Virus record (IMG/VR): IMGVR_UViG_3300008262_003210
Direction: 5' to 3' (one strand)
Origin: a virus
Taxonomy: Duplodnaviria; Caudoviricetes
Length of the DNA: 64,000 bases
Shown here piece by piece: positions 31,293 through 58,030 of the stretch. The notes below the pieces were generated by a model, which searched no databases, had not been told where the DNA came from, and saw only the letters and a list, made by a program, of their open reading frames with translations. A program made the translations under genes and the position numbers. Positions within the stretch are counted from its first letter, which is position 1. Each line of letters opens with the position of its first letter.

Positions 31293-31889
31293 TCACCATA
31301 CACCAAAGTTAACTACACATCTGTGTCCGGTAGTTGGCCTAGTGCTAGTATGATAACGAGAGCCATCAAATACGATGGCTCTTCCTTTTTTAGGTGTAAT
31401 ACTCTTAAAAATTTGTAAATTTTCTTTTTTAAGATCATCAGGCGGAATGTCTCTAAAAGTTTTGTCATATATTACAGTATCTCCGTCGCTGTCTGTAACA
31501 TAATATAGAACTACAATATGACTAACTTCTCTATCAACATGCGGATGGTCTAATGCACTTTCTAAATTTGGCAGTGGGATAGTTAAAAAACTTCTTGCAG
31601 CAATAACTTCGTTTACATGAAATTTAATTTTTTCGCAAGCATTATATACAATAGGTAAAACTAGTCCGTATCCAGGACTGATAATTCCAGCAGTCCTGTC
31701 ATAGAATTTATGAGCAAATGCAGGTTTAGCAACTGCTACATTTAATTCGTTAAATTTTTCATTGTCAAATGTTATATCTCTCATATAATGCCAAGTTATA
31801 TTATTTCCCAGCATCTGAGTTTCTATCAAATCTTGATATTGTTTAGGAACAATATCATCTAATACAACAACGTCGTCTATTATAAGCAT
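31293..31889 (-). CDS. Fe(II)/2OG dioxygenase (HxD type), 198 aa
   Basis: PHVD...VLYYV.DSDGDT...KGRAIVFDG..YH.S..P....R.V.N. Confidence 0.8.
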   Translation of the reverse strand: MLIIDDVVVLDDIVPKQYQDLIETQMLGNNITWHYMRDITFDNEKFNELNVAVAKPAFAHKFYDRTAGIISPGYGLVLPIVYNACEKIKFHVNEVIAARSFLTIPLPNLESALDHPHVDREVSHIVVLYYVTDSDGDTVIYDKTFRDIPPDDLKKENLQIFKSITPKKGRAIVFDGSRYHTSTRPTTGHRCVVNFGVW

Positions 31890-32461
31890 ATTGAATTAAA
31901 TGAAATAACTATCCTTGGTTGCGTTCCTTGATACACGTCGGCATCGTGTAGCAACATACTAGGAAATAAAACTAAATTTCCAGGAGAACAATTAACAGTA
32001 AAATGTTCATCGGCAAATTCTAAACCAAGTTTTCTTTCCATGTAATAAGGCAAGTACCAGTTATTACTTCCTCCTTTATTGTTTTCACTATCAACATAAA
32101 AAATACCAGACCAAGTTGAACCAGGGTGATGATGGGGTTTGTGATACCCGCCACATCTAGTAACATGTGCCCAACTTTCGGTAATTACTGTTCTGTAATT
32201 AGTGTTGTTAAAATTATTAATTAATGCAGTAGATTCTTGTATCAACCATAATTTTAAATTATTAATATCTGTTTGTTTTTCTAAAAAATCAAACGATGAC
32301 TCCCATAAATTTAATTTGGCATTAACTGCTATATTAGATTCTACAGTATTAGGGATTTCAGCTTTAAGGCAAGTCTCGACTATTGTTTTCTTATTATCCT
32401 CAAATTCTTTCCATGTACTTGTAAGTAAAGGAATTTTTCCTAATAGCGTAAATTGTCTCAT
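31880..32461 (-). CDS. Putative Fe(II)/2OG dioxygenase, TIGR02466/PF13759-like (HxH), 193 aa
   Basis: ESW.......YH.PHHH....WSGIFYV...G.LVLFPS.L.H...R..ISFN. Confidence 0.8.
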   Translation of the reverse strand: MRQFTLLGKIPLLTSTWKEFEDNKKTIVETCLKAEIPNTVESNIAVNAKLNLWESSFDFLEKQTDINNLKLWLIQESTALINNFNNTNYRTVITESWAHVTRCGGYHKPHHHPGSTWSGIFYVDSENNKGGSNNWYLPYYMERKLGLEFADEHFTVNCSPGNLVLFPSMLLHDADVYQGTQPRIVISFNSICL

Positions 32462-33195
32462 TTATCTATCTCTAAATCTTTAGATTCTAAAATGTATTTT
32501 ACTTTATTTTTAATAAAACTTCTCCAACCAAATCTTGATAGTTTGTTTAAATTAAGAAGATTAGAAAATCTTTTATGATCTTTTTCAGTATATGATTTAG
32601 ACTCTGCGTGTATAGTTTCTCTTTTATAAGGAATCACTTGCACTAACGGATCACCCATTTTAATTAATGTATCTTTTTTTTCAAAAAACATTAGATTTAT
32701 AGGATTGCGATTTAGCATACTATCTGTATCAACTATTGCGGGTAATGCTTGATAATTTTTATTGTGATAAAAATAAGGCAACCACATTAGGCCATACCCT
32801 TGTTCGGTTACAATACTCCAGGGGCTATTTAATTTAATAGACATTCGTAATTCAAACTGATTGCCAATAGTATCTCCTATCTGTTCCGAAGAATGAATTT
32901 CATACCCGTAATCAGTATTGCTCATTTCTATTTTTACAGAATCCTCAAAAAAAGATACTTGTATATCGCACCATGCAGGAATGATATAACCTGCTTTTGT
33001 ATAATTTGATATAGCCGGGCATTGCCTAATTGTTAACTGACTTGCAGATTTACTGTGGTCAAAAGGACAAATCTCACCAACCGGCAGATTTTTAAATTCG
33101 TCAGGAAAGTATTTTTCTGCCGGAATAACTGGAGCATAGTTTCTTATAGCCCAATCAGGACAACTAAATGTTATTTGATTATTACTCATTGGCAA
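32458..33195 (-). CDS. Conserved hypothetical protein, dUTPase-like beta fold (DUF6065-like), 245 aa
   Basis: QCPA....GY.IP...D; K..SPW...T..GY; IKMGDPLVQVIP; paralog of 39555..40256. Confidence 0.5.
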   Translation of the reverse strand: MPMSNNQITFSCPDWAIRNYAPVIPAEKYFPDEFKNLPVGEICPFDHSKSASQLTIRQCPAISNYTKAGYIIPAWCDIQVSFFEDSVKIEMSNTDYGYEIHSSEQIGDTIGNQFELRMSIKLNSPWSIVTEQGYGLMWLPYFYHNKNYQALPAIVDTDSMLNRNPINLMFFEKKDTLIKMGDPLVQVIPYKRETIHAESKSYTEKDHKRFSNLLNLNKLSRFGWRSFIKNKVKYILESKDLEIDK

Positions 33196-33772
33196 ATATA
33201 TCCACTGATATTGTCAGTGTCATAACTAGCCTATTTTCTTGACTAGAATTTATTTCAGTTTTATGATGTAAAAATCCAGGGAAAAAGATCACATCATTCT
33301 GGTTAACTTCTAAAATAGTCCAGTCATTTTTGTTATTTTTTGGAAAACCAGAAAATGTATATTGTAACGGATCTTTAAACATTATATTTCCGCCTAATTT
33401 AGGTTGTTTTAAATAGATAACAATATTTTGATGACACATTGCATGATCATGCTCATCTGTCCATGCGCCTGGGGGATGTAAGTTTACCCAGCTTCTGTGT
33501 ACACGTCTTGGACGGTCAACAAAATTAGATGTATCCCACACTATTTTACTTTGTTGAATTAACCACTCTTTTAGATCTTTACAAACAGGATCATTAATTA
33601 AGTTGTTTATAGTACTGTATGTAGACTTGCCACCGTTTTTTTCTAAATTATGATTTGAATTTTCATTAAAGTATGTCAAAAATTTACTAGAAATATTTGT
33701 TAAATCTCCGGGATAAACAGATTTATGTATTAAACTAGGCCAAAGATTTATGTGTTCGATTGATGACGTCAT
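33182..33772 (-). CDS. Putative Fe(II)/2OG dioxygenase, TIGR02466-like (HxH), 196 aa
   Basis: RSWVN...G..T.EHDH......YL...GG...F.DP...FFP..L.H......R.V. Confidence 0.8.
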   Translation of the reverse strand: MTSSIEHINLWPSLIHKSVYPGDLTNISSKFLTYFNENSNHNLEKNGGKSTYSTINNLINDPVCKDLKEWLIQQSKIVWDTSNFVDRPRRVHRSWVNLHPPGAWTDEHDHAMCHQNIVIYLKQPKLGGNIMFKDPLQYTFSGFPKNNKNDWTILEVNQNDVIFFPGFLHHKTEINSSQENRLVMTLTISVDIFANE

Positions 33773-33773
33773 A

Positions 33774-34361
33774 TTATTCTACCAATTCGATCCACGTTGA
33801 CATAATGTATTTTGTTCCAGACAGCGGAGGATTTCCTCGATGAGTGTGTGTATAACTTGCAGGCGCAATAATCATTGTTCCCCGTTTTGGCGGGATTCTT
33901 ACAGACTGATATAAAAATTCTGTTTCCCCACCATGTTCAATATCATTTAGATATAGCAACACAAATGCCAGTCGTCTTGCTGTTCCTATGTTTGCATGTT
34001 CACAATGCCATACATGATAGCCTTGCCTAGGTTCTGTTTTTTGTATTTTTACAGATTCACTTATGGCTTGTTTTGATATACTATTCAAAACTCCAATTTC
34101 ATTAGAATACGATAAAAAATTAGCTCTAATTGATTGATTAAATTCTTTTAAAATATTACTGTTGATATTAATTATAAAATCGTCAACCTCGTTTTCAACA
34201 AAATACTTTTCGTCGTCTTTGTTAATTTTTAAAGCACCGTCGTGTTGCTGTCGATTTAACGTTCTCCCTTCAGATTGCATTCTTTCAAAATGTGCAATCG
34301 CTCTATTACAGAAATCATCTGTTACAGAATTTGAATAAACTTTTATAAAAAAATCATTCAT
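33774..34361 (-). CDS. Fe(II)/2OG dioxygenase, prolyl-4-hydroxylase-like (HxE), 195 aa
   Basis: KIQKT....GYH.WHCE...R.L...LYLND...GGETEF.YQ....P..G.....P..YTH.HRGNPP....KYI...W. Confidence 0.85.
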   Translation of the reverse strand: MNDFFIKVYSNSVTDDFCNRAIAHFERMQSEGRTLNRQQHDGALKINKDDEKYFVENEVDDFIININSNILKEFNQSIRANFLSYSNEIGVLNSISKQAISESVKIQKTEPRQGYHVWHCEHANIGTARRLAFVLLYLNDIEHGGETEFLYQSVRIPPKRGTMIIAPASYTHTHRGNPPLSGTKYIMSTWIELVE

Positions 34362-35943
34362 ATTTGTTTTTTAAATATTGATATAATGTCGTAGCAGAAT
34401 CAGCAAATTCGTTTCTTTCGGCTAGGTCAGCATCCCATTTGTGCCAACATATATCCTTTAAGTAAGTCACGTACTCTGTATTAGCATTCCTAAACAACGT
34501 TCTTTTTAGTAAACTACTATCAATTGGAAACAGATTCATTCCTGTGGCAATCATCATAGATCCGCCCATTTCTATATCATATAAATGACTTACAAATTTT
34601 CTATGTATTAGACTGTCTATTCCGTAAGTTGCATAAACACCTAACTGCATAGTTTTAGGATAATTACGTTTTTGAGCAGCTTGCCAATAAGGTGTTTGAT
34701 CTCTGTGACTCATAGCATAATGTAAGGCTACAAATTCTGCAAACGCTCTAAAATCTCCTCTACATGCTTCGTTAAAAGCAGTTTTATCAAACTGACTTAC
34801 CGAGTTTCTATTAAGTATTGCAACCAGTTTTAATAAAAATTCATGAACTGTATACAAACCGTTAGACTCTAATGGTTCAATAAAGCCGGCAGCAAGTCCA
34901 ATTCCACAAACATTTTTGTGATAAATTTCTTTGTGTATTCCTACTCTCATCTTAATGTTTTTAAATTCTAAAGAGTCAATAACAGATTTAGGAATTGGAA
35001 CTTCTCTTTCGTTTTCTAAATATTGTTTAAATTCTTCAAGAGCAGCATCGTCAGAAATAAATTTATCACTATAAACATATCCAGTACCAGTACGACTCCA
35101 TAATGGAATGTTCCAAACCCACCCATTTCCTATAGCTGTGCAATTAGTAAATGGCTCTAGTTCTTTCTCTTTATCTTGAAACGGGATACGTGTTGCCCAT
35201 GCGCTGTTGTTAGGTAATAAATCATTATAACTTTCAAACGGTGTGTGTAATGCTTTATCTAACAATATAGATTTAAAACCGGTGCAATCTAAGAATAAAT
35301 CAGCAGTAACTATATCACCGTTATCTAATACTAAAGACTGAATTCCGTCGTCTTCCACTTGTACAGACAACACTTCTGCTTGAATGTGTACAACTCCTTT
35401 TGGAATAGCGTATGAATCTCTTAACCATGCACCAAACTTTGCCGCATCAAAATGATAAGCAACATCTCTATCAAAATTCCAGCCTGGTATTTCGTTGTTT
35501 TTATTATCGGTAATTTTATTTTTATTAACTAATGCCATGGCCGGAAAGAATGTATCGGCAAAATTTGAGACAGGTATCTCAGGTTGCATTGCTTTTCTTG
35601 TGTACCAGTCATTAACTCCGTAAGGAAAGAATTTATTGTCAAATAGCGGGACTCCAAACGGGTAATGAAATGCCCCAGCATTTTCTTTGTAAAAATTAGT
35701 GAATTTGATGCTCATTTTATAACTAGCATCACATTGTTTCATCCAGTCGTCGTCTTTTATGTCGAGGTCATGCAGCCATTCGTTTATCTGCCCAATAGTA
35801 CTTTCGCCTACGCCCACAGTTGGGACGTTAGGGCTTTCGATTACATAAATTTCTTTGTTTGGAAAATTTTTAATTAGCGTTGCTGCGCTCATCCATCCGG
35901 CGCTGCCGCCGCCTACTATAACAATTTTATTAACAATACTCAT
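34354..35943 (-). CDS. Flavin-dependent tryptophan halogenase homolog (PrnA/RebH family), 529 aa
   Basis: GGGSAGW FAD motif; VGVGEST; CDASYKMSIKF (catalytic Lys as in RebH K79); GWVWNIP; FIEPLESNG (Glu346-equivalent). Confidence 0.9.
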   Translation of the reverse strand: MSIVNKIVIVGGGSAGWMSAATLIKNFPNKEIYVIESPNVPTVGVGESTIGQINEWLHDLDIKDDDWMKQCDASYKMSIKFTNFYKENAGAFHYPFGVPLFDNKFFPYGVNDWYTRKAMQPEIPVSNFADTFFPAMALVNKNKITDNKNNEIPGWNFDRDVAYHFDAAKFGAWLRDSYAIPKGVVHIQAEVLSVQVEDDGIQSLVLDNGDIVTADLFLDCTGFKSILLDKALHTPFESYNDLLPNNSAWATRIPFQDKEKELEPFTNCTAIGNGWVWNIPLWSRTGTGYVYSDKFISDDAALEEFKQYLENEREVPIPKSVIDSLEFKNIKMRVGIHKEIYHKNVCGIGLAAGFIEPLESNGLYTVHEFLLKLVAILNRNSVSQFDKTAFNEACRGDFRAFAEFVALHYAMSHRDQTPYWQAAQKRNYPKTMQLGVYATYGIDSLIHRKFVSHLYDIEMGGSMMIATGMNLFPIDSSLLKRTLFRNANTEYVTYLKDICWHKWDADLAERNEFADSATTLYQYLKNKYE

Positions 35944-35973
35944 GTTACTCCAATCTAATGTATATAATAATTA

Positions 35974-36621
35974 TCACATTGTAGAGTCTACTATAACATT
36001 TCCTGAAATTGTTATTCTATGCTTGTCTGAAGATAAAAATGGGTAAACCAAATGTTTCATTTGAGACGGAAAAAATAAAACAGTACCTTCATACTTGCTT
36101 TCTGCAAAAAACGGTAACATAGTAATTTCCCCAAATACATTTGTATAGACAAAATTAAACGTTGTTGCTAACGGGTAATTAGAGCTAGAAACACAAGGCA
36201 TCTCCATCTCTGTTTTTAAATCATACGGAATGTTTACCCAAATAACAAAACTAAAAACACCAGTATGATCATGTAACGGATTGTATTCGGTTTTCTTTTG
36301 AAAATTAACCCATATAGGATCCAACTTAAAAGATATTGTTTTTACGGACGGGTGTTTTCTTAGAATTTCAGACTTATAGTTCCAGGCAAGCATATATTCG
36401 CCTGCCATTTCAAGCACAGTAGATTCTATAAGTGTTTGACACCTATCTAAATAAAATTGATATTCTAAATGGCCTGCTAGATTTTTTTGAATTTTAGGAT
36501 GGTCTTCAATTGCATTTTCAATAAGTGCAACTTCTTCTTTAATTTTTAAAAGAATATCATCAGGTATAGTAGCTATAGAATAGCCATAATTTGGAAACGC
36601 TTTATGTTCAATTTTCATCAT
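35974..36621 (-). CDS. Putative Fe(II)/2OG dioxygenase, TIGR02466-like (HxH), 215 aa
   Basis: WVNFQ...EYNPLHDH.G.FSFVIW...EG..LFFPS...H.VYPF......RI.ISGN. Confidence 0.8.
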   Translation of the reverse strand: MMKIEHKAFPNYGYSIATIPDDILLKIKEEVALIENAIEDHPKIQKNLAGHLEYQFYLDRCQTLIESTVLEMAGEYMLAWNYKSEILRKHPSVKTISFKLDPIWVNFQKKTEYNPLHDHTGVFSFVIWVNIPYDLKTEMEMPCVSSSNYPLATTFNFVYTNVFGEITMLPFFAESKYEGTVLFFPSQMKHLVYPFLSSDKHRITISGNVIVDSTM

Positions 36622-38102
36622 TTAGAAAAATTAACAACAGTACATGAGTTTCTAGATTTTAAAATTTCTAAACATTCTCTATGAGGAATCATAGTTTGTT
36701 CTTCAATAAACTTTTTAAAATCTTTTTGTAGTTCGTTTATAGAAAACAACATGTCTTCATTTTGTTGCGACATCATATTTTTTATGCTTTCTGCATCAAG
36801 CATTTTTAAACCGTGCATGACTAATAACCAATTTACTTCTCTAAAAAGCAAATATGGTTTAGTAAAGAACGTTGTATTAGGCCCAGACATTTTAAAATGC
36901 TCTAATGTTTGCTGATTAAATTCAGTTAATTTTAAATTTTTACAATCCTTCCAAAAAGCAGAATCACTTCTGTTAGTTATATAATGCAATTGAACAAAGT
37001 CAATAATATTTTTAGCTACGTCTTCAAAATCGGAATTATATTTGTCAATTAATGGCTGATTGCCGTGTTCATAGTTTACTAAAGAGTTAGCAATGCCAAA
37101 TGCTTGCTGAATAGAAGTTCCTATACTACTTGCCTCTAACGGTTCAACAAAACTTCCTGCAAGTCCAACAGAAATGCAATTTTTAATCCAAAATTTATTT
37201 ACATATCCTGCTGTAAATTTAAATGTTTTAGCAATATTAATAGGAGAGGAAAAAACTGATTGTGCTTCTGCTATGGCTTGTTCGTCTGTAATAAATTTAT
37301 CACAATATACATAACCATTACCAAATCTATCAATAGTTGGTATTCTCCACATCCAACCAGAACTCATTGCAGTACTAAGGGTGTGTGAAGGAATATCTTC
37401 TATTTTTTCTGTAGGAAATGCAAACGCACTATTCATTGGTAGATAGTCAGAACAGTCTACCCATGTTGCACCTAATTTAGAAGATATGACACGTTTAAAT
37501 CCACTACAGTCAATAAAAAAATCTGCTGAATATTTTCCAGATTTGCCAACTAGTTCTGAAACATGACCTGTGTTATCTAAGATAACATCGTCTATTGTAT
37601 CATCAATAATTTTTATATCTCTGATTAAACATTGCTTAATAAGATAATCGTTAAGTTTCATTGTATTGAAATGAAACTGATTAACGGTTCCCTCCAATGG
37701 CTCGTAATGAACTGATTTATGAAGGTTATCAGGAATAATATCGTGATGTGTTTTTCCTTCAGCAATCATACCTAAATAAATGTTATTAGGACCATTATAG
37801 CTTTCTTTTAAAAAATGACCATGGACACTATGAAAATAATAGTCATCGTCTCCATTCCAATTTATAAATTTTATACCAGATTTAAATGTTGCATCTGTTT
37901 CTTTTAATAATTCTTGGATTGAAATTCCTGCAACCTGCATAAAGCGAGCCCAATGTTCAGTTGACCCTTCTCCAACTCCAATAATGCCAATGTCAGATGA
38001 TTTTACTATTGTAATATCAAGTTTTCTGTAGATAGATTTTAATATAATTGCGTTAACTAGTCCACTAGTCCCACCGCCAAGAATTATTAAATTGTTAATC
38101 AT
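36618..38102 (-). CDS. Flavin-dependent tryptophan halogenase homolog, 494 aa
   Basis: GGGTSG; IGVGEGS; ATFKSGIKF; GWMWRIP; FVEPLEASS. Confidence 0.9.
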   Translation of the reverse strand: MINNLIILGGGTSGLVNAIILKSIYRKLDITIVKSSDIGIIGVGEGSTEHWARFMQVAGISIQELLKETDATFKSGIKFINWNGDDDYYFHSVHGHFLKESYNGPNNIYLGMIAEGKTHHDIIPDNLHKSVHYEPLEGTVNQFHFNTMKLNDYLIKQCLIRDIKIIDDTIDDVILDNTGHVSELVGKSGKYSADFFIDCSGFKRVISSKLGATWVDCSDYLPMNSAFAFPTEKIEDIPSHTLSTAMSSGWMWRIPTIDRFGNGYVYCDKFITDEQAIAEAQSVFSSPINIAKTFKFTAGYVNKFWIKNCISVGLAGSFVEPLEASSIGTSIQQAFGIANSLVNYEHGNQPLIDKYNSDFEDVAKNIIDFVQLHYITNRSDSAFWKDCKNLKLTEFNQQTLEHFKMSGPNTTFFTKPYLLFREVNWLLVMHGLKMLDAESIKNMMSQQNEDMLFSINELQKDFKKFIEEQTMIPHRECLEILKSRNSCTVVNFSK

Positions 38103-39564
38103 ATAGTTTTTTCCATTCTTCTGTTGATAAACAATCTTTTGTTATCAAATTTATTTCGTTTCGCAACTGATTGTATTCGGTTGTGACTTTTTCTAATATG
38201 TTTTCGTGTTTAGAATTTAAAATATTCTTCAACATTGTTTTATCAACTAAATTATAAGCCTGTAATACAACCGCATAATTTTCTAAAGAGTATGCAACTC
38301 CAAAATCATAAAAATTTCCATTTTTAATAGCATCTAATTTAGATTGTAAAGATTCAGGAATAGAACTAATGGACAAATGCCTATTCCAAAATTCTGTGTC
38401 ATTTTTTCTATTTCTATAGTGTAAAGAAATAAAATCTACTGTATCATTAACAATATCTTCGTATGCAGAATTAAACCTGCTTTGTCCGTGCAAATGAGTT
38501 TGCTTGCAAGGGCTCCATGTTTCAGAAAGTATTCGCAACATCATGGCTATCATAGTGTGTCCGCCAGACCCAAGCGGTTCTAAAAATCCAGAACTGAGTC
38601 CTATAGCAATTACATTTTTCTGCCAAGGATTCATGGCCATTTCAGGTACCCACGATGCCTTTGCAACTAAATCAACAGTTTTACCAAGTTTGCGTTCAGC
38701 TTCTAATTGTGCTTGTTCTGAAGATATTAGAGATTCATCGTAGACATATCCATTCCCACTTCTTGATTGTAAATCAATATTAAATCTCCAACCATAATCC
38801 ATTGCAATCATGTTGCTATAGGGCTGTAAGTTTGATTTGTCCCACCAAGCAATAACACTATTAGCTGTAAAATATTTAGAAAAATTTTTAAATTTAATTC
38901 CTAATTCTTTTTTTAACAGCAGTTGATTAAATCCGCTACAGTCAATAAAAAAATCAGCTTCAATGTCTTGATTTTCTAAAATTAATTTTTTAATACCAGT
39001 TTCGTCTTGTAACGATGATTTATATTTTGATAGAACTAGTTTTATATCTAAAGATAATCCTATGTTTTTAAAATAATCAGCGTTCTTTCTGCTATCAAAA
39101 TGATACATAGGTCTAACTACAAATCCGTTTGCAGTAAATGGTGTCAATCTATTTTCTAACAGAGCTCCTGAAACGGTAGTTTTGTGTAAAGGTATATCTG
39201 CAGCTAACAATCCTTTAAGTAAGACATTGTCAGTTCCAAATTCAGGATTGTAATAATCCCACCGATTTCTGTAAGAAGAAAAAAGAGGCTGTATAAATGT
39301 AGTGTTGTTTGCACCCCACCCTACAAATTTACCTCCTAATTTTGGTAATGCATCAACTTTTTTAATCCAGTCGTTTGTGTCAATGTCTAAAAAATCTAAC
39401 AAATCAACAAAAGGCGCTGTGCAACTTTCTCCGGCTATGATTGGCGGGTGTTTTGGATCTTCTATAACTGTAATATCTAAGGACGGCCAAACTTTTTTGA
39501 AAAAAATAGCTGATAGCCAGCCACTTGTTCCTCCGCCTAGTATAGCAACAGTTTTTACATCCAT
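38095..39564 (-). CDS. Divergent flavin-dependent halogenase homolog (about 489 aa; start re-called at MDVK)
   Basis: GGGTSGW; IIAGES; ALPKLGGKF (Lys kept); WxWxIP replaced by WRFNID and FLEPLES by FLEPLGS. The 39564 start gives a short overlap with the upstream gene, like others in the array. Confidence 0.8.
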   Translation of the reverse strand: MDVKTVAILGGGTSGWLSAIFFKKVWPSLDITVIEDPKHPPIIAGESCTAPFVDLLDFLDIDTNDWIKKVDALPKLGGKFVGWGANNTTFIQPLFSSYRNRWDYYNPEFGTDNVLLKGLLAADIPLHKTTVSGALLENRLTPFTANGFVVRPMYHFDSRKNADYFKNIGLSLDIKLVLSKYKSSLQDETGIKKLILENQDIEADFFIDCSGFNQLLLKKELGIKFKNFSKYFTANSVIAWWDKSNLQPYSNMIAMDYGWRFNIDLQSRSGNGYVYDESLISSEQAQLEAERKLGKTVDLVAKASWVPEMAMNPWQKNVIAIGLSSGFLEPLGSGGHTMIAMMLRILSETWSPCKQTHLHGQSRFNSAYEDIVNDTVDFISLHYRNRKNDTEFWNRHLSISSIPESLQSKLDAIKNGNFYDFGVAYSLENYAVVLQAYNLVDKTMLKNILNSKHENILEKVTTEYNQLRNEINLITKDCLSTEEWKKLYD

Positions 39565-40256
39565 CGTTTTGGCCTCAATTTGTTTATGGCGTTGTGTATT
39601 TTCCAACTAAGTTTAGGCATATAATGTTTAAGAGTTAAACAACTGTTAACTGCATGTTCTAATTTTTCTGTTCTTTCTATTTGTTTAAGTACAAATTTAT
39701 CACTTGGATTGTCAGACCTAAATCTAATGTAGGCCATTGGTTGACCTCGTTTTAAAATAACTTCATCTTCTAACATCTCAATAGTAGTTACAATAGGTCG
39801 CTGCCAAGAGTAAATGTTAAACATACCTGGAATGAGTCTCCAAGAATGATCAATGTGATTAAATGGGGGAATAAATTCTACATAAACAGGTTGATCCGCT
39901 ACAAATACAAAACTATTGCTAATGGCTACAATGGGTCTACCATTGTCAGGATCAAAATCACCCCAATGAGTTCTTACCATTGCATCAGCAGCATCTTTGG
40001 GTAAATTTGTGCTGATTACTTTGTTATATTTGTCCCAGTGTAAAACTAAATCTACTGTATTTTTTAACACAAATGTATTTTTTACATATTTTACAAATGC
40101 AGGACATTGATGATAACGAGAAGTTGAGTCGTTCCAAGTATCTAGTGGCTCTAGATCAAAATAGGCCAAATCAACCCACCCATAATAGTTAAGTGCAGTA
40201 TTTGTAGTTCGAATATTTTTTTCAAACCACGGACAAAAACCAATTTTAATAGTCAT
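39555..40256 (-). CDS. Conserved hypothetical protein, dUTPase-like beta fold (DUF6065-like), 233 aa
   Basis: QCPA......F.L....D; LIPG.F.I..W.RP; LKRGQPMAYIRF; paralog of 32458..33195. Confidence 0.5.
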   Translation of the reverse strand: MTIKIGFCPWFEKNIRTTNTALNYYGWVDLAYFDLEPLDTWNDSTSRYHQCPAFVKYVKNTFVLKNTVDLVLHWDKYNKVISTNLPKDAADAMVRTHWGDFDPDNGRPIVAISNSFVFVADQPVYVEFIPPFNHIDHSWRLIPGMFNIYSWQRPIVTTIEMLEDEVILKRGQPMAYIRFRSDNPSDKFVLKQIERTEKLEHAVNSCLTLKHYMPKLSWKIHNAINKLRPKRWM

Positions 40257-40464
40257 AGTTAGATGACCAAAATCCTTGCGGGCAGCTACCGGCTTTTAAA
40301 GCGCACTTAGCACTTACTGGACTGCCTACAATTTTACATATACCCTCGTTTTTGTTTTCATATGCATAACAATTTTTACAAATTTCCATTCTTTGTTCGT
40401 ATATTTGCATAGAAACGCGAAGCACTCTTTCGTCTAAGTGCATCTGTCTTGGTTTTTTAATCAT
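40246..40464 (-). CDS. Small Cys-rich protein (72 aa), putative metal-binding
   Basis: R..ICKNC...........C.........C......CP...W; overlaps both neighbours, so it is embedded in the operon. Confidence 0.6.
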   Translation of the reverse strand: MIKKPRQMHLDERVLRVSMQIYEQRMEICKNCYAYENKNEGICKIVGSPVSAKCALKAGSCPQGFWSSNYDY

Positions 40465-41176
40465 TTTTTAAACTCCGTTTCATATGATCTAGAATAAATT
40501 CTAAATTTAAAATTTTATTTTGTAACTGATCAATTTCACTAGTATGTGGTTGATAGTCTATTACATAGTTGCTGTCTGACGAAAGATATTTTCCAGAGTA
40601 ATTAATGTTGTAACTCATTACAATTCTAGGGTGATTAGAAAGATTTTCTTTTGTCTTATGTCTAATCCATCCCGGAAATAATATTAAATCTCCTGTCGAA
40701 ACTGGAATAGAAGTTTCTATTTTATTTTCAATAGCAACTCCATACGGTATATGGGTTAGTCCATATTCCATTGGATTTATTAATACTAAGTCTCCAGAGT
40801 TTTTTTCGGCTTTTATGTATAATGTAGCAACTATTGGATATAAACTATGAGAATGTTCTACTGTAAGACTATTATTATAATGTATATTTGACCAACATTG
40901 GTCAATCCTAGGTTCTAACCTAGGATCAATATCTAATATTTTCCAATATAATTTAGTATGTTGTAGAACAATATCTGATACTGTTTTTGAATATTCTTCT
41001 AGATGTAAATTACAGTCAGTGGAATAAGTGCTCACTCCACCGTTCATTTCTAAATTACTAGTTTTAGGGGAAGATTGCTTTAATTTAACCTGTAGATTTT
41101 CTTCAAGATTACTAGTATCTATTTGATCTAAAATATTAACTTTATATATTGGTAAAGAGAATAAATTGATAATCAT
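40457..41176 (-). CDS. Putative Fe(II)/2OG dioxygenase, TIGR02466-like (HxH), 239 aa
   Basis: CWSN......T.EHSH......LYI....SGDL...NP...GDLILFPGW..H......RIV.SYN, plus a short coiled-coil-like C-tail. Confidence 0.8.
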   Translation of the reverse strand: MIINLFSLPIYKVNILDQIDTSNLEENLQVKLKQSSPKTSNLEMNGGVSTYSTDCNLHLEEYSKTVSDIVLQHTKLYWKILDIDPRLEPRIDQCWSNIHYNNSLTVEHSHSLYPIVATLYIKAEKNSGDLVLINPMEYGLTHIPYGVAIENKIETSIPVSTGDLILFPGWIRHKTKENLSNHPRIVMSYNINYSGKYLSSDSNYVIDYQPHTSEIDQLQNKILNLEFILDHMKRSLKND

Positions 41177-41182
41177 CGCGCT

Positions 41183-41770
41183 TTATTCCAAGTACCATTT
41201 TTTACTCACAAAAGTTTTAAAAGAAAGATATGTTCTAAGTTTTTTGCAATCTCTATTAGGTGCAAGGCCCCTGTGAGGTATGTTACTATCAAAAACTAAA
41301 CAAGTATTGGGCATTGGGTAATAGGTTGCAATAACATTTCCGTCTTGATCAAAAAACTGAAATTCTCCTCCCCATTCTGGATTCCATTCCTGATTAGGGA
41401 AAAAACAAAAAGTCATAAATCCGTCGCCCATGTCGTTAAACTCTACTTCTTTATCAGTGTGTATTCCGCCATCTAACCCAAATGTTTTTCCTCCGGCAAT
41501 AGCACTATAAAGTTTAAATTGATATTTTTTGGTACTAGGCTCAAGTTCATTTAATTTATTAATGATTTCGTAAAACGCCTGTTCTCCTACCATGTGATAC
41601 AATGTTAAATCGGCTTGCCAAAACATTGTTGTATCCTCGTCCCAAACGTCAGGATTTGTAACTCTGCCATATTGCCAAATTGGTTTTTTCAATTCAGCAA
41701 CAATGTTTACAAATGTATCATTTCTCAGTACATTTTCTAAATAAAATATTTCAGACATGGGTTTGTTCAT
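41183..41770 (-). CDS. Fe(II)/2OG dioxygenase (2OG-FeII_Oxy_3-like, HxD), 195 aa
   Basis: G.IHTD...W..EWGGE..F...N..L.FDS...H.G..P.......R....FK. Confidence 0.85.
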   Translation of the reverse strand: MNKPMSEIFYLENVLRNDTFVNIVAELKKPIWQYGRVTNPDVWDEDTTMFWQADLTLYHMVGEQAFYEIINKLNELEPSTKKYQFKLYSAIAGGKTFGLDGGIHTDKEVEFNDMGDGFMTFCFFPNQEWNPEWGGEFQFFDQDGNVIATYYPMPNTCLVFDSNIPHRGLAPNRDCKKLRTYLSFKTFVSKKWYLE

Positions 41771-41771
41771 A

Positions 41772-42404
41772 TTAGTTGATATCCTTATTGTGTCTATTTA
41801 TGGCCTGTTTTGCCATATTTTTAGAATTTTGATTAGACCATTCTGGGAAATTATGCTCCTCCGCTGCTAGGCTAGACAGCAAATTTGTGTCTAAATCGTG
41901 TTTGTAATTTGCATAACTGCCATGTTTTTTAACATAATGAAGAAATGCTTGATACTGATACTGTTGCCCTTGCATAGGGTGTCTAAAATGCATAATTTCA
42001 GTTCCTTTGTACAGTAGCACATCACCAATGTCTAAGTCAACACTTATAACTTGTCCGTTATCTACTAACCAAAATGGCCATATGTATTTTTCATAATTCA
42101 ACGTTAACGTAAGACTAATTTCACAACTTGGTCTATCAGTGTGTGGTGGAAGACTATCATTTTCTTGATATATCCTAGCATATGAATAGCATGGATATAA
42201 TTCTTCTCCTACTATTGTTTCAACATTTTTTTGTATTTCTACTAATTCATCATTAAATATTCCGTAAAACGCAGGACTTAACGTACACAACGGATCAGGA
42301 TTTCGATATACTCCTCGGCCAAATAATGTATTAAGCCTGTTGGCCATCTCTACACATTTTTCTTTTTCAAAGAAATTTTTTAAAATCTTATAATTTTCTT
42401 TCAT
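41772..42404 (-). CDS. Fe(II)/2OG dioxygenase (HxD), 210 aa
   Basis: YSYARIY.....L.PHTDRPSCEIS.T...GD..LY.G....H.R......Q.FLHYV. Confidence 0.85.
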   Translation of the reverse strand: MKENYKILKNFFEKEKCVEMANRLNTLFGRGVYRNPDPLCTLSPAFYGIFNDELVEIQKNVETIVGEELYPCYSYARIYQENDSLPPHTDRPSCEISLTLTLNYEKYIWPFWLVDNGQVISVDLDIGDVLLYKGTEIMHFRHPMQGQQYQYQAFLHYVKKHGSYANYKHDLDTNLLSSLAAEEHNFPEWSNQNSKNMAKQAINRHNKDIN

Positions 42405-42975
42405 TTTGGCTAAGAGTTATATTAAACGATAAACTAATTCTTTTATGACTTGTATTATTATGAAACACGGCATGTTCTAAAAAACTTGGAAATAACAAAA
42501 TCTTTCCAACTTCTGGTTTATAGTTAACAGCGTTATCAATATTGTAAGTTAGCTTATGAAATCTATTAACTAAAGAAGGATTTCTAAAAACAATATCTCC
42601 GTCATCACCAGAAGTTTGGTGATAATAAACACCAGACATGTCACTATCGCCGTGCAAATGATAATGTTGAAAAGAATGTTCGCCTCCTATATTACACCAT
42701 GATTCTCTAACATTAATGTTTAAATTAGAATAGTTTAATCGTATTAAGAATTCCCTACAATGTTTTTTTATTTCTTCTAATAGAATTGGTGTTTCAGATA
42801 AAACGTGTTCGTAATTACCATACTTAAAAGTAGTTGAAACTGTGTCTCCCCAAGGATTTACAAGCCGTGCTCCATGTAAAGTAGACACATACTCTGAAAC
42901 TTCTTTTTGAATTGAATCTATATTTTCAACAATAGCAAAATATATAGGAGTAGGAAAAAAATATTCAACTGGCAT
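42388..42975 (-). CDS. Putative Fe(II)/2OG dioxygenase, TIGR02466-like (HxH), 195 aa
   Basis: ESW.N......Q..HLH....SGVYY...G.I.F.NP...G...LFPS.L.H.V......RISLSFN. Confidence 0.85.
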   Translation of the reverse strand: MPVEYFFPTPIYFAIVENIDSIQKEVSEYVSTLHGARLVNPWGDTVSTTFKYGNYEHVLSETPILLEEIKKHCREFLIRLNYSNLNINVRESWCNIGGEHSFQHYHLHGDSDMSGVYYHQTSGDDGDIVFRNPSLVNRFHKLTYNIDNAVNYKPEVGKILLFPSFLEHAVFHNNTSHKRISLSFNITLSQNERKL

Positions 42976-43591
42976 TGGATTCTATTGACAAGTTAAAAGG
43001 AATACTTATTTTATTTTTTAATTGTTTATGACTATCATATCCATGATATACATTAGATTTAAACAATACTAATCTTCCAGGAACACAGTCATATGAGATT
43101 TTAGAATAATTCATCGGGTTATGAACCCAAGGTTTAACCGGTTCGTATGCATCTCTGTAAGGCGAACCAAAACATATCTTTGCACCTGGCGGAGCATCTA
43201 CATAAAATACTCCGCTTATAGCAGCCCTGCCAACAGTACTATGAATATGTTGAGCATGATAATCATATGGACCAATAGAATTTAACCACATGTTTGTAAA
43301 AGCCAGTTGATTCTCTTTTAAAGAAGGATATCCTAATACTTCACAAAATAGTAATGTTTGTTTTCGAATAGCTAAACATAAATCAGAAAATCTAACATCA
43401 TTGTATAAATGACCGTATACGTCATGCCAAAAAGAAGTATGCAGACTACTTTCACCAAACGGATGAGGATCCTTTTCAATGTCTTTCAACATTTCCAAAG
43501 CAATCTGTTCGTAGTCGGCAAGTTTATCCATGCAGTTAAGGTCTGAATAATAGACCAATGTTGGAAACCACGAATCAATATAATGTGTCAT
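42965..43591 (-). CDS. Putative Fe(II)/2OG dioxygenase, TIGR02466-like (HxH), 208 aa
   Basis: NMW.N......H..HIH.....ISGVFYV...GRL.LF.S...HG.......KISI.FN. Confidence 0.8.
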   Translation of the reverse strand: MTHYIDSWFPTLVYYSDLNCMDKLADYEQIALEMLKDIEKDPHPFGESSLHTSFWHDVYGHLYNDVRFSDLCLAIRKQTLLFCEVLGYPSLKENQLAFTNMWLNSIGPYDYHAQHIHSTVGRAAISGVFYVDAPPGAKICFGSPYRDAYEPVKPWVHNPMNYSKISYDCVPGRLVLFKSNVYHGYDSHKQLKNKISIPFNLSIESNAS

Positions 43592-44175
43592 TTAAATCTT
43601 GGCCCTACGACCCAGGAAACTAAACTTTTTCTTAAACCTTCTGTTACCGGAGTTACTTCGTGAATTACATAACTGGGGAATACAATTAAAGTTCCTTTAG
43701 TTTTAGGAGCAATTACTGGATCCTTTGTTGAAAATCTATAAAATAATAATTCACCTCCTTGGTAGTCGGCTTCATCTGAAAGTTGAATAGTTAAACTTAA
43801 TTTTCTAAAAAGATTATATTTGTAACCGTCGTCGCTGTGTGGTTTGTAATGACCTAGTGTATCTGAATGGTATTCAGCGTACTGTAAGTCTTCCATTTCT
43901 GTTAAATCGTATCTGTAAAATCTGTCATTCAACTGTTGAATAATATTTGAAAGTTTCATGTAAAGATCTTTGGATTCTTCGTTAGTTTCAATCCAAGAAA
44001 TTTTATTCTTACGAATTTCTTCGTTAGAAATTCCGGCTTCTAAAGTGCCATCGCCCTGCATAGTACTTTTGCTAGCCAGCATTTCTACTAATTTTATTTC
44101 ATCATCGGTAAGAACGCCTGGTGCGTATGCAAATGGTTCATTTGCGTAATTTAAATCTTTTATAAACCAGCTCAT
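43588..44175 (-). CDS. PKHD-type (PiuC/YbiX-like) Fe(II)/2OG hydroxylase, 195 aa
   Basis: LQ...Y.....GHY..HSD....RKLS..IQLS....Y.GGEL...KGT..VFPS...HEVTPVT.G.R.SLV.W..GP.FK. Confidence 0.9.
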   Translation of the reverse strand: MSWFIKDLNYANEPFAYAPGVLTDDEIKLVEMLASKSTMQGDGTLEAGISNEEIRKNKISWIETNEESKDLYMKLSNIIQQLNDRFYRYDLTEMEDLQYAEYHSDTLGHYKPHSDDGYKYNLFRKLSLTIQLSDEADYQGGELLFYRFSTKDPVIAPKTKGTLIVFPSYVIHEVTPVTEGLRKSLVSWVVGPRFK

Positions 44176-44744
44176 TGTTTCAATCCTGTATCAAAACTAA
44201 CCACATATCGTTGATTAGAAAAATTATTTTCAGTGTAATGCATCAGCCAACTAGGAAACAATATTAAATCTCCCAGTGCTACTTTAAAATTAAAGGCTTG
44301 TCTGTTGTATTCAGTTAATCTTGTTGAAATTTCATTAACCTTAAAAGGTTGACATGGGTTATCAAATATTAACTCGCCCGAATCGTCATCTGCTTTGCTA
44401 TAAAAAACACCACTTATTAGACTAAGTTCGTGCCTATGAGGTTTAATTGTGCTGCCATCTCTGTATATGTTACACCAACTATAAGTTATTTTACAAGGAT
44501 GCAATCCTAATTGATCAGCATAAAGATCTACACATTCCTGTATAGCATTTTTAAGATCTAAATTAGAATCTAAAAAAGAAGATGAGTTGCTTCTTAAACC
44601 TTTACCATTAAACAACTTATGATAAGTGTTAACAAGTTCAGTTTCTTCAATTTTTTTACTAATTTCTTCTAAGTTAGCTTTGCCTAACAAATTATAAACA
44701 TTTATAACGGTTGGAAATAACCAACATTCTGCTTTTTTAATCAT
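44172..44744 (-). CDS. Putative Fe(II)/2OG dioxygenase, TIGR02466-like (HxH), 190 aa
   Basis: SWCN......I.PHRH..S.ISGVFY....SG.L.F.NP...GDLILFPSWL.H.T......R.V.SFD. Confidence 0.85.
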   Translation of the reverse strand: MIKKAECWLFPTVINVYNLLGKANLEEISKKIEETELVNTYHKLFNGKGLRSNSSSFLDSNLDLKNAIQECVDLYADQLGLHPCKITYSWCNIYRDGSTIKPHRHELSLISGVFYSKADDDSGELIFDNPCQPFKVNEISTRLTEYNRQAFNFKVALGDLILFPSWLMHYTENNFSNQRYVVSFDTGLKQ

Positions 44745-44745
44745 T

Positions 44746-45195
44746 TTAAATTAAGTCCACTAAATCAAATATTGTTTGTAATTTTGTTCTAATAGTTTTA
44801 TTACTAAAACTATTTCTCAAACCTTGATGCAATGGTTTAGGAGCGTAATCAACATTTACCCATGCGTAGCCGGTGTGTTCTTGGCTGAGAATGGGAATAA
44901 ATTCGTTGTCTATTACACAGAGATATGTGTGAAAATTAAAAACTTTGTCGTTTGATACAAACGTCTCTAATGGTATAGTTTTGATTATGTGGGGAGTTGT
45001 GCCTACTTCTTCAGATACTTCTCTTTGAAGTCCTTGCCAGGGATTTTCATGTTGTAGGTTAGTGCCACCTACTAATCCCCAAGTACCAGCATGTTTGCCT
45101 TCGGCTTTTTGTAACAGTAAAAATCTTCGTGTAGATTTAGCGTAGAATAATGCTCCGCTACATACAATCTTATCTGTTACAGTTCTAATCTCCAT
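44746..45195 (-). CDS. Nudix hydrolase (149 aa)
   Basis: Complete Nudix box G-x5-E-x7-REVSEEVG; EH..Y.W near C-terminus. Confidence 0.9.
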   Translation of the reverse strand: MEIRTVTDKIVCSGALFYAKSTRRFLLLQKAEGKHAGTWGLVGGTNLQHENPWQGLQREVSEEVGTTPHIIKTIPLETFVSNDKVFNFHTYLCVIDNEFIPILSQEHTGYAWVNVDYAPKPLHQGLRNSFSNKTIRTKLQTIFDLVDLI

Positions 45196-46637
45196 TCGCC
45201 CGCCCTATACTCGCCTTCAAACGATTTAGCCCAAAATACACCATTCCAGACGTACTGGACCCCAGTATATATATTCGTTTGATATATGAGTGTGTCGGAT
45301 TCTTGAGTAGAATTAAAAATTATATACCAATTTGTATTATCAAATTCTATAATATCGTTTGCATAGGCAACTAGATTCCCCCAAGCACTAGCTGGTTGAG
45401 TGTTATTTTCGTTGCCTATATCTTCTATAATTAAGTATCGAGTACCTGCTACTGGTGACTCTGGATTATAGGTCAGGGGATTAATAATTGCATCAAATGT
45501 TCCTGGGCTTGCTGGCCTTAAGTTATTTGTTCCGTAGTCGGCATCAGTGTCCAAATTACCGTCGCTATCAATTCCTGTATTCGTATTAAGTGTATCTGCG
45601 TCCCAGGATACTTGTAGGATTGTTGGATCTAGTGGACTTATTGCCACTGTGCCTATAACTTCTGTTCCGTTTGATTGAGTTAAGTACAATGAACTTGATC
45701 CTGCTGTGTACTTTCCAGGATATTTGTCAAAAAGTGCTTGCCATTCAATTGGCGTTCCTTGACGAACAGGTATATCCAGTGTTGGTTCTCTAGGCACGCT
45801 GCTTTCTGATTTATTCAATAAAATTACTTGATTGTTATAAACTTGAACATTGTAATCTGTAATAGTAGCAGATTCGCGAGTTAACAACTGCCCCATAGCA
45901 ATATCTGGACCTGCTAATGGCTGACCTAATCCTTCTATGTAAGAATTATTGTTTACATTTGCACCGTCATATAAACTTGTAATAATTTTAGTAATAACTC
46001 CAAGATGCTTAACTTTAACTGGAGGACTAATCCATATAGGAGTTTCTAACTGTAGTGTTGCAATATCAATAGGACTATCAGTACCTACTGGAACACTACG
46101 ACTAGACCATGTTGTCTGTGTTAGATTTAAAATTGAAAGGCTTGTCCAGTCAACATAATTGTCGGTTGTCTGTAGTTCAAGGCTTGGATTAAACAATACT
46201 AGTATTTGTTCTAGTAACTGTAATTTTTGTTCAGTATTTGCAGTCCATATATCACACTTCATAGTTAACTTAAAAGGCGTTGGCATCAAACGCTCAACAG
46301 TATAGTTGCGTCCTTGTCCAGAAGTGTACACTGGATTATTTGGATCAGCGTCATTTATTTCGCGTTCTCTTACATGAACTTTGCCTACAAAAGTAGAGTC
46401 ACTCATTCTAGTCATGTCTAAATCTAAACCAGAAATATAAACAGCAATTCTTGGCACACTACTAATTTTGTTTTCACTGTTTTGACGAACAATACTTGCC
46501 GCCTGCCTATCAGCATCTCCGTACATAACCGGAACACGAACAAGAGTTCCATCTCCGTATTTGACTGTAAAATTACTCAACACACGAATAGTTTGAGTTA
46601 AGTACCTTCTTATTTGTCCGTCATAAAAAAATTGCAT
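45177..46637 (-). CDS. gp15: Tail completion/sheath stabilizer protein, T4 gp15-like, with C-terminal extension (486 aa)
   Basis: FYD.QIRRY.......F...VP..YG...PR.......D..R...P.P..L....IW......Q.LEQIL..FNP; located next to the neck genes. Confidence 0.7.
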   Translation of the reverse strand: MQFFYDGQIRRYLTQTIRVLSNFTVKYGDGTLVRVPVMYGDADRQAASIVRQNSENKISSVPRIAVYISGLDLDMTRMSDSTFVGKVHVREREINDADPNNPVYTSGQGRNYTVERLMPTPFKLTMKCDIWTANTEQKLQLLEQILVLFNPSLELQTTDNYVDWTSLSILNLTQTTWSSRSVPVGTDSPIDIATLQLETPIWISPPVKVKHLGVITKIITSLYDGANVNNNSYIEGLGQPLAGPDIAMGQLLTRESATITDYNVQVYNNQVILLNKSESSVPREPTLDIPVRQGTPIEWQALFDKYPGKYTAGSSSLYLTQSNGTEVIGTVAISPLDPTILQVSWDADTLNTNTGIDSDGNLDTDADYGTNNLRPASPGTFDAIINPLTYNPESPVAGTRYLIIEDIGNENNTQPASAWGNLVAYANDIIEFDNTNWYIIFNSTQESDTLIYQTNIYTGVQYVWNGVFWAKSFEGEYRAGEWRLEL

Positions 46638-48049
46638 TATAAATCTGCCTTTGGTCTAAGAGCTTTAGATAAACTCTGTCGTTGTGCTTCTCTATTCTTG
46701 CAAAGACTAATCTTCCAAGTGCCTGTATGAGGAATAATTTGTTGCTCATCGCTAATTACAGGAAGTTCAATGCGAATTTTACCAGCGTTATTAGTTATCA
46801 TGCTAGTATAATCTTCAATAGTAAAACCTATTTCCGTTGTTTCTAATTTTAATACCAGATATACTGCACCTGTTAAATCTGAATAGTTAATATTGGTGTC
46901 AAATTCAATATCGCCTTCGTCTAACTTCACCCAATCAATTGCAGTTGCTTGATTGTAGATATAAGAAGTATTATTAATAAATCCAGTTTTAAGAGTTTGA
47001 CGAGTATCGTTGTTGGTCATATTCATACGCACAGCATCTTCTACTTTAATCCAACGTGTGCCGTCAAAGCGGAATAATCTGTTGGGCATAAAATCTGTAC
47101 GTAGGAAAAAATCATCTGGACCTGGTGCTTCGGGAAACTGTATGCCGTGGCCAAAATCATATCCGTTTTGCGGGAACCCATCTCCAACTAGATAACCAGT
47201 GTAACCAGTTCTGACAGGACGAGCATTGCTTTCTAGTGCAGTAATACTTGTTATAGATGCATCTAGTTCAGTTGTATCTGAAGTATTAAGTACAGTTTTT
47301 CCTTTTTCATCAACTGCCAAAGTATAAAACTGTCTTGTTTCATATCCACTCTTAGGAGCATCTGCTTCTGCTTGTTGAACAACAGCATCGTTAATCACAA
47401 GTTCTTGTGTTCTCATACTTAACAAATCACGCAGAGTTTTATCGCTTGGATTACCGTACGCATCAGTTGCTGGCTTATCTAAAATATCTGCGAATTGTTG
47501 TGCATCTAGTAATTTCTTGCAACGTAATCTATACAAGTGAGGATACCATGTTGCACTAAATCCTTCGCTAGCACGGCCAACATCTTCAATTACGTAATAT
47601 CTTGGCAGAGCAATGTCGTAATCATTTAATGCAAATTGGTCTTTTAAATGAGGTAATTCAATAACGTCACCTGATAAGGGTTTACGTCCAACATATTCAA
47701 TAAAATTATTAATGTGGACCGTCATAAAAATTATATCATTGTCAATGAATAATCCAAATTGACTTAGGTTAAAATCAATATTTGCAACATTATAGAGCCC
47801 GCGAATTTTGTAAATTTCTTCGCTGTATTTTCTGTCTCTATTTTCTAAAAATAACAAATCTTGAATGTTTGTTTCTTTGACAGCATCGTACACTGGTTGA
47901 TCTGCTGTACCTTCGTCTTTTAGTTTAGGACCTAGATACTTGTGCAAATAAACATCTGTACCGCCAACCTGAAACATCTCAGAAATTGAGCGATCTATAA
48001 ATTTGTAGTCTTGCCCTCGTTCGGGCTTATATAAGGATAATCGTGGCAT
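46637..48049 (-). CDS. gp14: Head closure/neck protein, T4 gp14-like (about 470 aa; start re-called at MPRL)
   Basis: F.E.RDR.Y...L.QFGLF..ND......H...GD.I.LP....Y.IE.V...F..TW..H...L.C; late promoter directly upstream of 48049. Confidence 0.65.
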   Translation of the reverse strand: MPRLSLYKPERGQDYKFIDRSISEMFQVGGTDVYLHKYLGPKLKDEGTADQPVYDAVKETNIQDLLFLENRDRKYSEEIYKIRGLYNVANIDFNLSQFGLFIDNDIIFMTVHINNFIEYVGRKPLSGDVIELPHLKDQFALNDYDIALPRYYVIEDVGRASEGFSATWYPHLYRLRCKKLLDAQQFADILDKPATDAYGNPSDKTLRDLLSMRTQELVINDAVVQQAEADAPKSGYETRQFYTLAVDEKGKTVLNTSDTTELDASITSITALESNARPVRTGYTGYLVGDGFPQNGYDFGHGIQFPEAPGPDDFFLRTDFMPNRLFRFDGTRWIKVEDAVRMNMTNNDTRQTLKTGFINNTSYIYNQATAIDWVKLDEGDIEFDTNINYSDLTGAVYLVLKLETTEIGFTIEDYTSMITNNAGKIRIELPVISDEQQIIPHTGTWKISLCKNREAQRQSLSKALRPKADL

Positions 48050-48053
48050 AATG

Positions 48054-48075
48054 ATATTTATCGCTAGATAAATAT
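48054..48075. promoter_or_regulatory. Back-to-back divergent late promoters forming an inverted repeat
   Basis: ATATTTATC-GCTA-GATAAATAT gives GATAAATA on each strand, between the divergent starts at 48049(-) and 48092(+). Confidence 0.7.
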
Positions 48076-48893: not shown

Positions 48894-48922
48894 TTGACCT
48901 TGTAATAAACCTGTTATATACT
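48894..48922 (+). promoter_or_regulatory. Sigma70-type promoter for dNMP kinase
   Basis: TTGACC(48894-48899)-N17-TATACT(48917-48922), followed by AGGAG RBS. Confidence 0.7.
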
Positions 48923-54058: not shown

Positions 54059-54081
54059 GGCCTACTTAGTAGGCCTTTTTT
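54059..54081 (+). terminator. Intrinsic terminator after tail tube gene
   Basis: GGCCTAC-TTA-GTAGGCC followed by TTTTTT. Confidence 0.8.
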
Positions 54082-57984: not shown

Positions 57985-58002
57985 TATCTTTGCAGTTATA
58001 TC

Positions 58003-58030
58003 AAAAGGGGCTCTTTGGAGCCCTTTTTTT
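58003..58030 (+). terminator. Intrinsic, possibly bidirectional terminator before terL
   Basis: AAAAG-GGGCTC-TTTG-GAGCCC-TTTTTTT. Confidence 0.8.

Follow-up and report, generated by a model that had tools for sequence, protein, structure and literature searches.

The 64,000-nucleotide (nt) stretch of viral DNA analysed here, IMG/VR record IMGVR_UViG_3300008262_003210 (Caudoviricetes), which as a whole is called the window, carries on its minus strand a block of genes running from 48049 down to 31293 that probably represents a late transcription unit of a T4-related jumbo myophage. The block begins with three neck genes, i.e., those of a virion protein in the gp14 position, a gp15-like tail-completion protein and a Nudix hydrolase, and continues with an island of 18 genes that includes oxygenases and halogenases. 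As judged from the sequence, the best description, and a well supported one, is that of a late operon of neck genes that has a hypervariable slot for cargo behind the Nudix gene and at least one internal late promoter; co-transcription of the enzymes with the neck genes and their late timing are predicted.

The source is a jumbo myophage from fresh water that has not been cultured and has core genes of the T4 type; contigs with proteins identical to those of the window come from a lake metagenome, and a near-identity DNA search with the window gave no match among cultured phages. The gp15-like protein matches those of Sinorhizobium phage Phosso, Agrobacterium phage Atu_ph07, Pseudomonas phage PA5oct and relatives at 29–37% identity, as well as 80 IMG/VR loci at 57–91% identity, and the sequence places the phage in the PA5oct/Atu_ph07-like jumbo group, outside the cyanomyoviruses. 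The window has a G+C content of 37.6%. The minus-strand block lies between two groups of plus-strand genes: up to 31292 there are giant fibre and structural genes, and from 48092 onwards a gp13-like gene, a deoxynucleoside monophosphate (dNMP) kinase gene, the sheath and tube genes, and more structural genes.

Neck genes and enzyme island

The first gene of the block (46637–48049, minus strand) encodes a protein of 470 residues that matches phrog_11591 (8e-84) and is homologous to gp320 of PA5oct (36% identity, E-value 4e-72), a protein marked in its record as found in virions by mass spectrometry. Its direct similarity to T4 gp14 is weak (hhalign E-value 0.023, probability 2%, residues 64–143 against 69–151), a sequence search of the PDB gave no match, and the AlphaFold model, built from an alignment of 16 sequences, was unusable, with a predicted local distance difference test score (pLDDT) of 49. 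The name gp14-like, used in a preliminary description of this DNA, is therefore kept here in the form of gp14-position protein: it is weakly supported, and rests mostly on the position in the neck cluster and on the homology to PA5oct gp320. The gene starts at ATG 48049, residues M1 to L6 being invariant in 16 homologues; the upstream TTG at 48112, given as the start in the list of open reading frames (ORFs), was rejected because conservation begins at ATG 48049.

The second gene (45177–46637, minus strand) encodes the gp15-like tail-completion or sheath-stabiliser protein, of 486 residues and with a C-terminal extension (PF16724, 1.6e-23), that also matches phrog_11196, phrog_227 and, in the PDB, chains of T4 gp15 at an E-value of 5e-4. 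The third (44746–45195, minus strand) encodes the Nudix hydrolase, of 149 residues (PF00293, 2.5e-14), which is 42% identical to gp322 of PA5oct. The first gene of the island is an oxygenase of the PF13759 family (4.6e-18), and so the three identities proposed earlier for the gp15-like, Nudix and oxygenase products are firm family calls. The spacing described for these genes is exact as well: the stop of the gp14-position gene and the start of the gp15-like gene share one nt (46637), the gp15-like and Nudix genes overlap by 19 nt (45177–45195), and a single base, 44745, separates Nudix from the first oxygenase. The 19-nt overlap is kept across the clade, with exceptions such as loci L038 and L042, in which an ORF is inserted between the two genes. 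All 80 loci have the trio and the divergent gp13-like gene beside it, as far as their contigs extend into this region.

The island itself (31293–44744, minus strand) comprises 2OG-Fe(II) oxygenases, three genes of the tryptophan-halogenase family, a DUF6171 gene and unassigned ORFs. The complete block spans 16,757 nt and contains 39 non-coding bases. With corrected start codons, its junctions measure -1, -19, +1, -4, -4, -11, -17, +1, +6, -8, -11, -10, -8, -4, +30, -8, +1, -8, -4 and -10 nt, in that order, meaning that within the island adjacent genes overlap or are at most 6 nt apart, save for one gap of 30 nt. The TTG starts listed for ORFs of 503 and 245 residues were rejected, since the ATGs at 39564 and 33189 fit better. 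The G+C content decreases from 39% in the other structural genes to 36.7% in the neck trio and 32.4% in the island, a low value that is as expected for exchangeable cargo.

The predicted late promoter of the neck genes

On the minus strand, the box GATAAATA (extended form CGATAAATAT) occupies positions 48062–48055, as had been described, 5 nt before ATG 48049. A second copy of GATAAATA lies back to back with it on the plus strand (48067–48074), in front of the divergent gp13-like gene (ATG 48092), which has a leader of 17 nt with GGAGAA. The box is a real signal and not a product of chance. Both strands of the window together contain 9 copies of the core ATAAATA, against a mean of 40 for its 20 permutations, i.e., the core is approximately 4-fold depleted, and 8 of the 9 copies are found 4–24 nt before the start of a long ORF, a position taken by 5.6% of the permutations. 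In 1.0 Mb of sequence from relatives, counting non-redundant sites, 113/135 copies of ATAAATA and 62/64 of GATAAATA precede gene starts (permutations, 6.3%). Furthermore, CGATAAATAT is invariant in 19 distinct relatives whose gp14-position proteins are 56–91% identical, and there it stands 4–7 nt before the gp14-position ATG, as measured from the end of the 8-bp box; on the other strand of the same relatives, GATAAATAT or GCTAAATAT is found around 17 nt before the gp13-like ATG. The divergent spacer is 40–52 nt long in these relatives, and its sequence drifts outside the boxes. The distance between the two boxes is 4, 13, 14 or more than 500 nt, the largest case being accounted for by an inserted ORF with its own box; therefore, the two boxes are independent elements.

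Several independent lines lead us to infer that the box is the T4-type late promoter of this clade. In T4, late promoters consist of TATAAATA at -13 to -6 (PMC2988020), which GATAAATA matches at 7 of 8 positions; the variant NATAAATA has been reported for late promoters of cyanomyoviruses (PMC2984593), and ATAAATA precedes structural genes in CBB and GAP32, two jumbo phages that likewise encode a gp55-like sigma factor (PMC5259590). The authors of the CBB study detected neither gp33 nor gp45 in their jumbo phage (PMC5259590). As in all these systems, the promoter of this clade would be an 8-bp A/T box at -10, usable on either strand, located before structural genes of a phage that encodes a gp55 homologue; in the relatives nothing is conserved approximately 35 nt upstream of it, i.e., there is no -35 element. 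It differs from them in that its first base is mostly G instead of T and in that a subset of boxes is 4–7 nt from the ATG, which predicts leaderless mRNAs.

The gp55-like sigma factor (280 residues; phrog_12791 at 1.3e-75, phrog_234 at 5.8e-26) was reached by walking along contigs linked to the window by identical proteins, and its gene lies about 21 kb upstream, behind a TTGACT-17-TATAAT promoter and followed by gp47- and gp46-like genes; it is present in relatives too. Two promoter classes are apparent in a 223-kb relative, where 29 sites are of the box type and 17 are strict sites of the sigma70 type. All its annotated genes behind a box are structural (tube, baseplate hub and wedge, fibres, sheath), and the sigma70-type sites precede the genes of the gp55-like factor, an HNH nuclease, a DNA-polymerase piece and the dNMP kinase, as well as clusters of small unknown ORFs. 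The window follows this division, with the box before morphogenesis genes and not before replication genes, and with a sigma70-type promoter, TTGACC-17-TATACT (48894–48922, plus strand), before the dNMP kinase gene, whose footprint is conserved in 33 distinct relatives. In front of the sheath gene of the relatives, CTAAATA, TATAAATA or CATAAATA is conserved around 31 nt upstream. Assigning the box to the T4 late class, as the preliminary description did, is thus supported by the conserved footprint, the structural genes downstream and the sigma factor that the phage encodes. The late use of the box, the start site and the arrival of the polymerase at the distal genes are predictions.

If the geometry is that of T4 (-13 to -6), transcription would start at the A of ATG 48049, and the mRNA of the gp14-position gene is probably leaderless. 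Boxes 4–5 nt before an ATG, with no Shine-Dalgarno site, are found at the genes that start at 48049, 54130, 59648 and 49884 (minus strand), the first three with GATAAATA and the last, a Cys-rich ORF of 108 residues (49884–49558), with CTTAAATA. The other late genes of the window have leaders of 17–31 nt with GGAG. This bimodal spacing between box and ATG suggests a class of leaderless late mRNAs; a literature search on leaderless mRNAs of T4-type late genes found nothing.

Continuity of the block

Two scans, one of them for hairpins followed by a T run, found no canonical terminator on the minus strand between 48049 and 31293, and the same scans detected clear terminators elsewhere in the window, at 54076, 58024, 63486/63463, 49557 and 31386. 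The RNA at the junctions folds no better than shuffled sequences (z from -0.67 to +0.29), in agreement with the previous claim that the junctions lack terminator-like hairpins. Two weak hairpins, at 42592 and 32775, were discounted as terminators, since in neither does the stem adjoin the T run. Upstream of the block, an intrinsic terminator (49581–49550, minus strand; -12.6 kcal/mol, then a T run) ends the ORF of 108 residues; therefore, the neck promoter is not simply fed by read-through from upstream.

According to the mechanism that we propose, the core of the host RNA polymerase together with the gp55-like sigma factor would open GATAAATA at 48062–48055 and initiate at most about 2 nt from the A of ATG 48049, so that the first gene would be read from a leaderless mRNA. 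Transcription would proceed through the gp14-position, gp15-like and Nudix genes and, because the junction has neither terminator nor hairpin nor free space, the polymerase would continue into the 18-gene island. Re-initiation within the island would occur at CATAAATA (41802–41795) and perhaps at the degenerate GATAATTA (35975–35968), and translation would be coupled by the overlapping stop and start codons.

The first of these internal boxes, CATAAATA (41795–41802, minus strand), is a probable late promoter. It is located in the 3' end of an ORF of 210 residues, 24 nt before the ATG of an oxygenase gene (41770), with the Shine-Dalgarno sequence AAGGA in between; the orthologue of this oxygenase in a relative (L004) has TTAAATA at a similar distance, and boxes inside the arrays of relatives show the same geometry, 21–30 nt before the gene. 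The second, GATAATTA (35968–35975, minus strand), is a 7/8 match that overlaps the TGA of the preceding oxygenase gene, 24 nt before the ATG of a halogenase gene (35943), and it sits in the only 30-nt gap of the block (35944–35973). Homologous halogenase genes in relatives have GATAAATA or AATAAATA 22–23 nt upstream, and GATAATTA is possibly a degenerate late box, a candidate only. Regarding the properties of a single operon, the genes of the block share one strand, are tightly packed and have no terminator between them, and the one departure is the probable internal promoter CATAAATA.

The slot after Nudix and the alternative readings

The slot was compared across 46 distinct junctions downstream of Nudix. 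In 11/46, enzyme genes abut Nudix on the same strand, as in the window; in 5/46 there is a gap of 55–65 nt with NATAAATA 24–29 nt before the first enzyme ATG, and 2/46 are other same-strand cases. The content downstream of Nudix is, from these comparisons, hypervariable across the clade. Seven loci with a convergent gene and an intergenic gap after Nudix (L029, L030, L031, L052, L057, L061 and L080) have a textbook bidirectional terminator there; terminators are therefore visible in the clade, and the absence of one at 44745 is meaningful. Where the arrays of relatives contain gaps of at least 25 nt, the box was found in 17/46 of them, non-redundantly counted, and a strong sigma70-like site in three; the expectation for the box in such gaps is below 1%, our own estimate from the frequency of the box in the window.

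Other observations weigh against a single late unit. A convergent gene follows Nudix in 28/46 relatives. A length of 16.7 kb is long to be crossed without Rho-dependent termination or decay, both of which are invisible in the sequence, and the internal CATAAATA could make transcription of the distal 10 kb independent of the neck promoter. There is a TTGACA-18-TATACT promoter before a halogenase gene in one relative (L024) and an extended -10 element, TGTATAAT, before two halogenase genes in four others (L072 and L076–L078), and within the coding sequence of the island there are six 10-of-12 sigma70-like matches, a number consistent with chance. Since some relatives have the island on the opposite strand or sub-arrays of sigma70 type, the enzymes are not tied to late expression clade-wide. 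Among the sequencing runs searched for this stretch, none of RNA was listed as containing it. In four metatranscriptome contig sets, eight short matching pieces (35–145 nt) were found, none of them bridging a junction, and they say nothing either way; seven are from the conserved neck genes and the eighth links the 3' end of the gp13-like gene to the start of the dNMP kinase gene.

An alternative that we consider unlikely, yet the strongest of those examined, is that the neck promoter serves mainly the gp14-position, gp15-like and Nudix genes, and that the island is transcribed chiefly from internal late-type promoters (41802–41795 and perhaps 35975–35968), with read-through adding little; expression would still be late, from more than one operon. 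The position of CATAAATA and its Shine-Dalgarno site before ATG 41770 agree with it, as do the frequent NATAAATA boxes before array genes of relatives and the terminator with which, in many of them, the ancestral unit closes behind Nudix. However, five island genes (44744–41772) precede the first internal box with neither box nor gap nor terminator, and are therefore reachable only from upstream; the same direct coupling to Nudix in eleven relatives also argues against this arrangement.

Considerably less probable is an early or middle expression of the island for the reprogramming of the host, with the sigma70 polymerase of the host acting at promoters concealed within genes and with a link to the neck genes that is only positional. 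The consensus sigma70-type promoters before halogenase and oxygenase sub-arrays of some relatives would fit this possibility, and so would the six matches mentioned above and the lower G+C content of the island relative to the core genes, which mobile cargo would be expected to show. Nevertheless, a scan of the minus strand between 31293 and 48100 found no site that fits the conserved sigma70 pattern of the clade; loose sigma70 matches are as numerous as in shuffled sequences (80 versus 86 ± 8), and the block has no intergenic room for a sigma70 promoter. Finally, the perfect 9-bp inverted repeat ATATTTATC-N4-GATAAATAT formed by the two divergent boxes of the window could be a single operator or an RNA hairpin instead of two promoters, an idea that is hardly credible and was rejected, given that the spacing of the arms varies among relatives while each arm holds the distance to its own gene, that the left arm becomes GCTAAATAT with no compensating change, and that the same box is found alone before many other genes.

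The preferred reading is accordingly that of a late unit with internal re-initiation. The proposal that the enzymes are late products of the neck unit retains the unbroken chain without terminators, and the coupling or the NATAAATA box seen in relatives; the part that does not hold well is the dependence on one promoter only, which is improbable.

Comparison with other phages

A known counterpart is the hyperplastic region that marine cyanomyoviruses carry between g15 and g18 (Millard et al. 2009, as summarised in PMC2984593). The two have in common a hypervariable cargo slot just downstream of a gp15 homologue within the structural module, which varies in content among close relatives and takes in genes of oxygenase and halogenase type. 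The slot described here differs in being located behind a conserved gp15–Nudix pair and in carrying a far larger cargo (18 genes) made up almost wholly of oxidative enzymes. The sheath gene also lies elsewhere, beyond the divergent promoter and on the opposite strand instead of past the island, and on this point the two arrangements do not correspond. The arrangement is a variant of known things, namely T4-type late promoters and the cyanomyovirus cargo slot downstream of g15, and the operon inference is solid but fairly ordinary.

In PA5oct, gp320, gp321 and gp322 (virion protein, gp15-like protein and MutT/Nudix hydrolase) form a homologous trio in the same order; the text of the PhageExpressionAtlas reports nothing on these three genes. 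Upstream of its gp14-position homologue, gp320, there is a canonical terminator, then GATAAATA and then AGGAG. In contrast with the window, the leader in PA5oct is 22 nt long and includes a Shine-Dalgarno site, and after Nudix there is only one small ORF, followed by convergent fibre genes, with no enzyme island. The annotated Nudix protein of PA5oct (105 residues) aligns only from residue 49 of the window protein and is preceded by an apparent gap of 110 nt; at this place (L001, 8371–8481) the annotated start may be too far downstream. In Phosso (L002, 9429–17116), the slot after the gp15-like gene contains nicotinamide adenine dinucleotide (NAD) salvage genes (NadE, NAPRT, MutT-like and NMNAT) and not oxygenases, and thus the same slot is used by distant jumbo relatives.

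Possible role of the enzymes

Auxiliary enzymes of phages are usually assumed to act early, on the metabolism of the host. In the present case, production of a very large oxidative enzyme set together with neck and tail proteins is predicted from the sequence, and the predicted lateness directs the search for substrates to targets of the late stage, e.g., proteins of the virion, DNA already packaged or the cell undergoing lysis. It is quite doubtful, and at present speculative, that the oxygenases and halogenases are late proteins that hydroxylate or halogenate virion components, e.g., the giant fibre proteins, during assembly, and that the slot after Nudix is a clade-wide site for swapping sets of virion-decorating enzymes under the control of gp55. 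The step from late expression to virion maturation, which had been suggested previously, is a hypothesis only, and nothing was found that ties the enzymes to the particle; the fibre proteins were examined for collagen-like or other obvious substrate motifs for hydroxylation and none was found. More generally, the two promoter classes defined for this abundant clade of uncultured freshwater jumbo phages make the timing of genes predictable from sequence across hundreds of contigs.

Additional features of the locus

The two divergent boxes (48055–48074) are 4 bp apart and their predicted starts are approximately 31 nt apart. Two polymerases could hardly fit on both, and the gp13-like and gp14-position units may compete. 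In one relative (L051:2215–2743), a small ORF, possibly an insert of the homing-endonuclease type, separates the divergent late boxes; boxes TATAAATA and CATAAATA belong to this ORF, and both flanking genes retain theirs.

Within the divergent oxygenase/halogenase spacer of L078 (6265–6344), also seen in L072, L076 and L077, TGTATAAT overlaps a conserved inverted repeat, CTGCAGATTATCTGCG. This repeat is operator-like and hints at a separate regulation of that sub-array.

At the distal end of the block, no base separates the island from the convergent fibre operon. The strongest hairpin with a T run in the window (31358–31393, plus strand; -16.4 kcal/mol) lies inside the last island gene, an oxygenase, and is likely the terminator of the convergent fibre operon. 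The scans found no counterpart on the minus strand that would end the island, which predicts antisense read-through and collision of polymerases. Another hairpin with a T run (38161–38196, plus strand; -13.4 kcal/mol) lies opposite the junction of two halogenase genes of the island, on the antisense strand, and may stop antisense transcripts. Elsewhere, a canonical terminator (GGGCTC...GAGCCC and a T run, 57985–58030) covers the TTG listed at 58015 as the start of an ORF of 540 residues, the true start of which probably lies further downstream.

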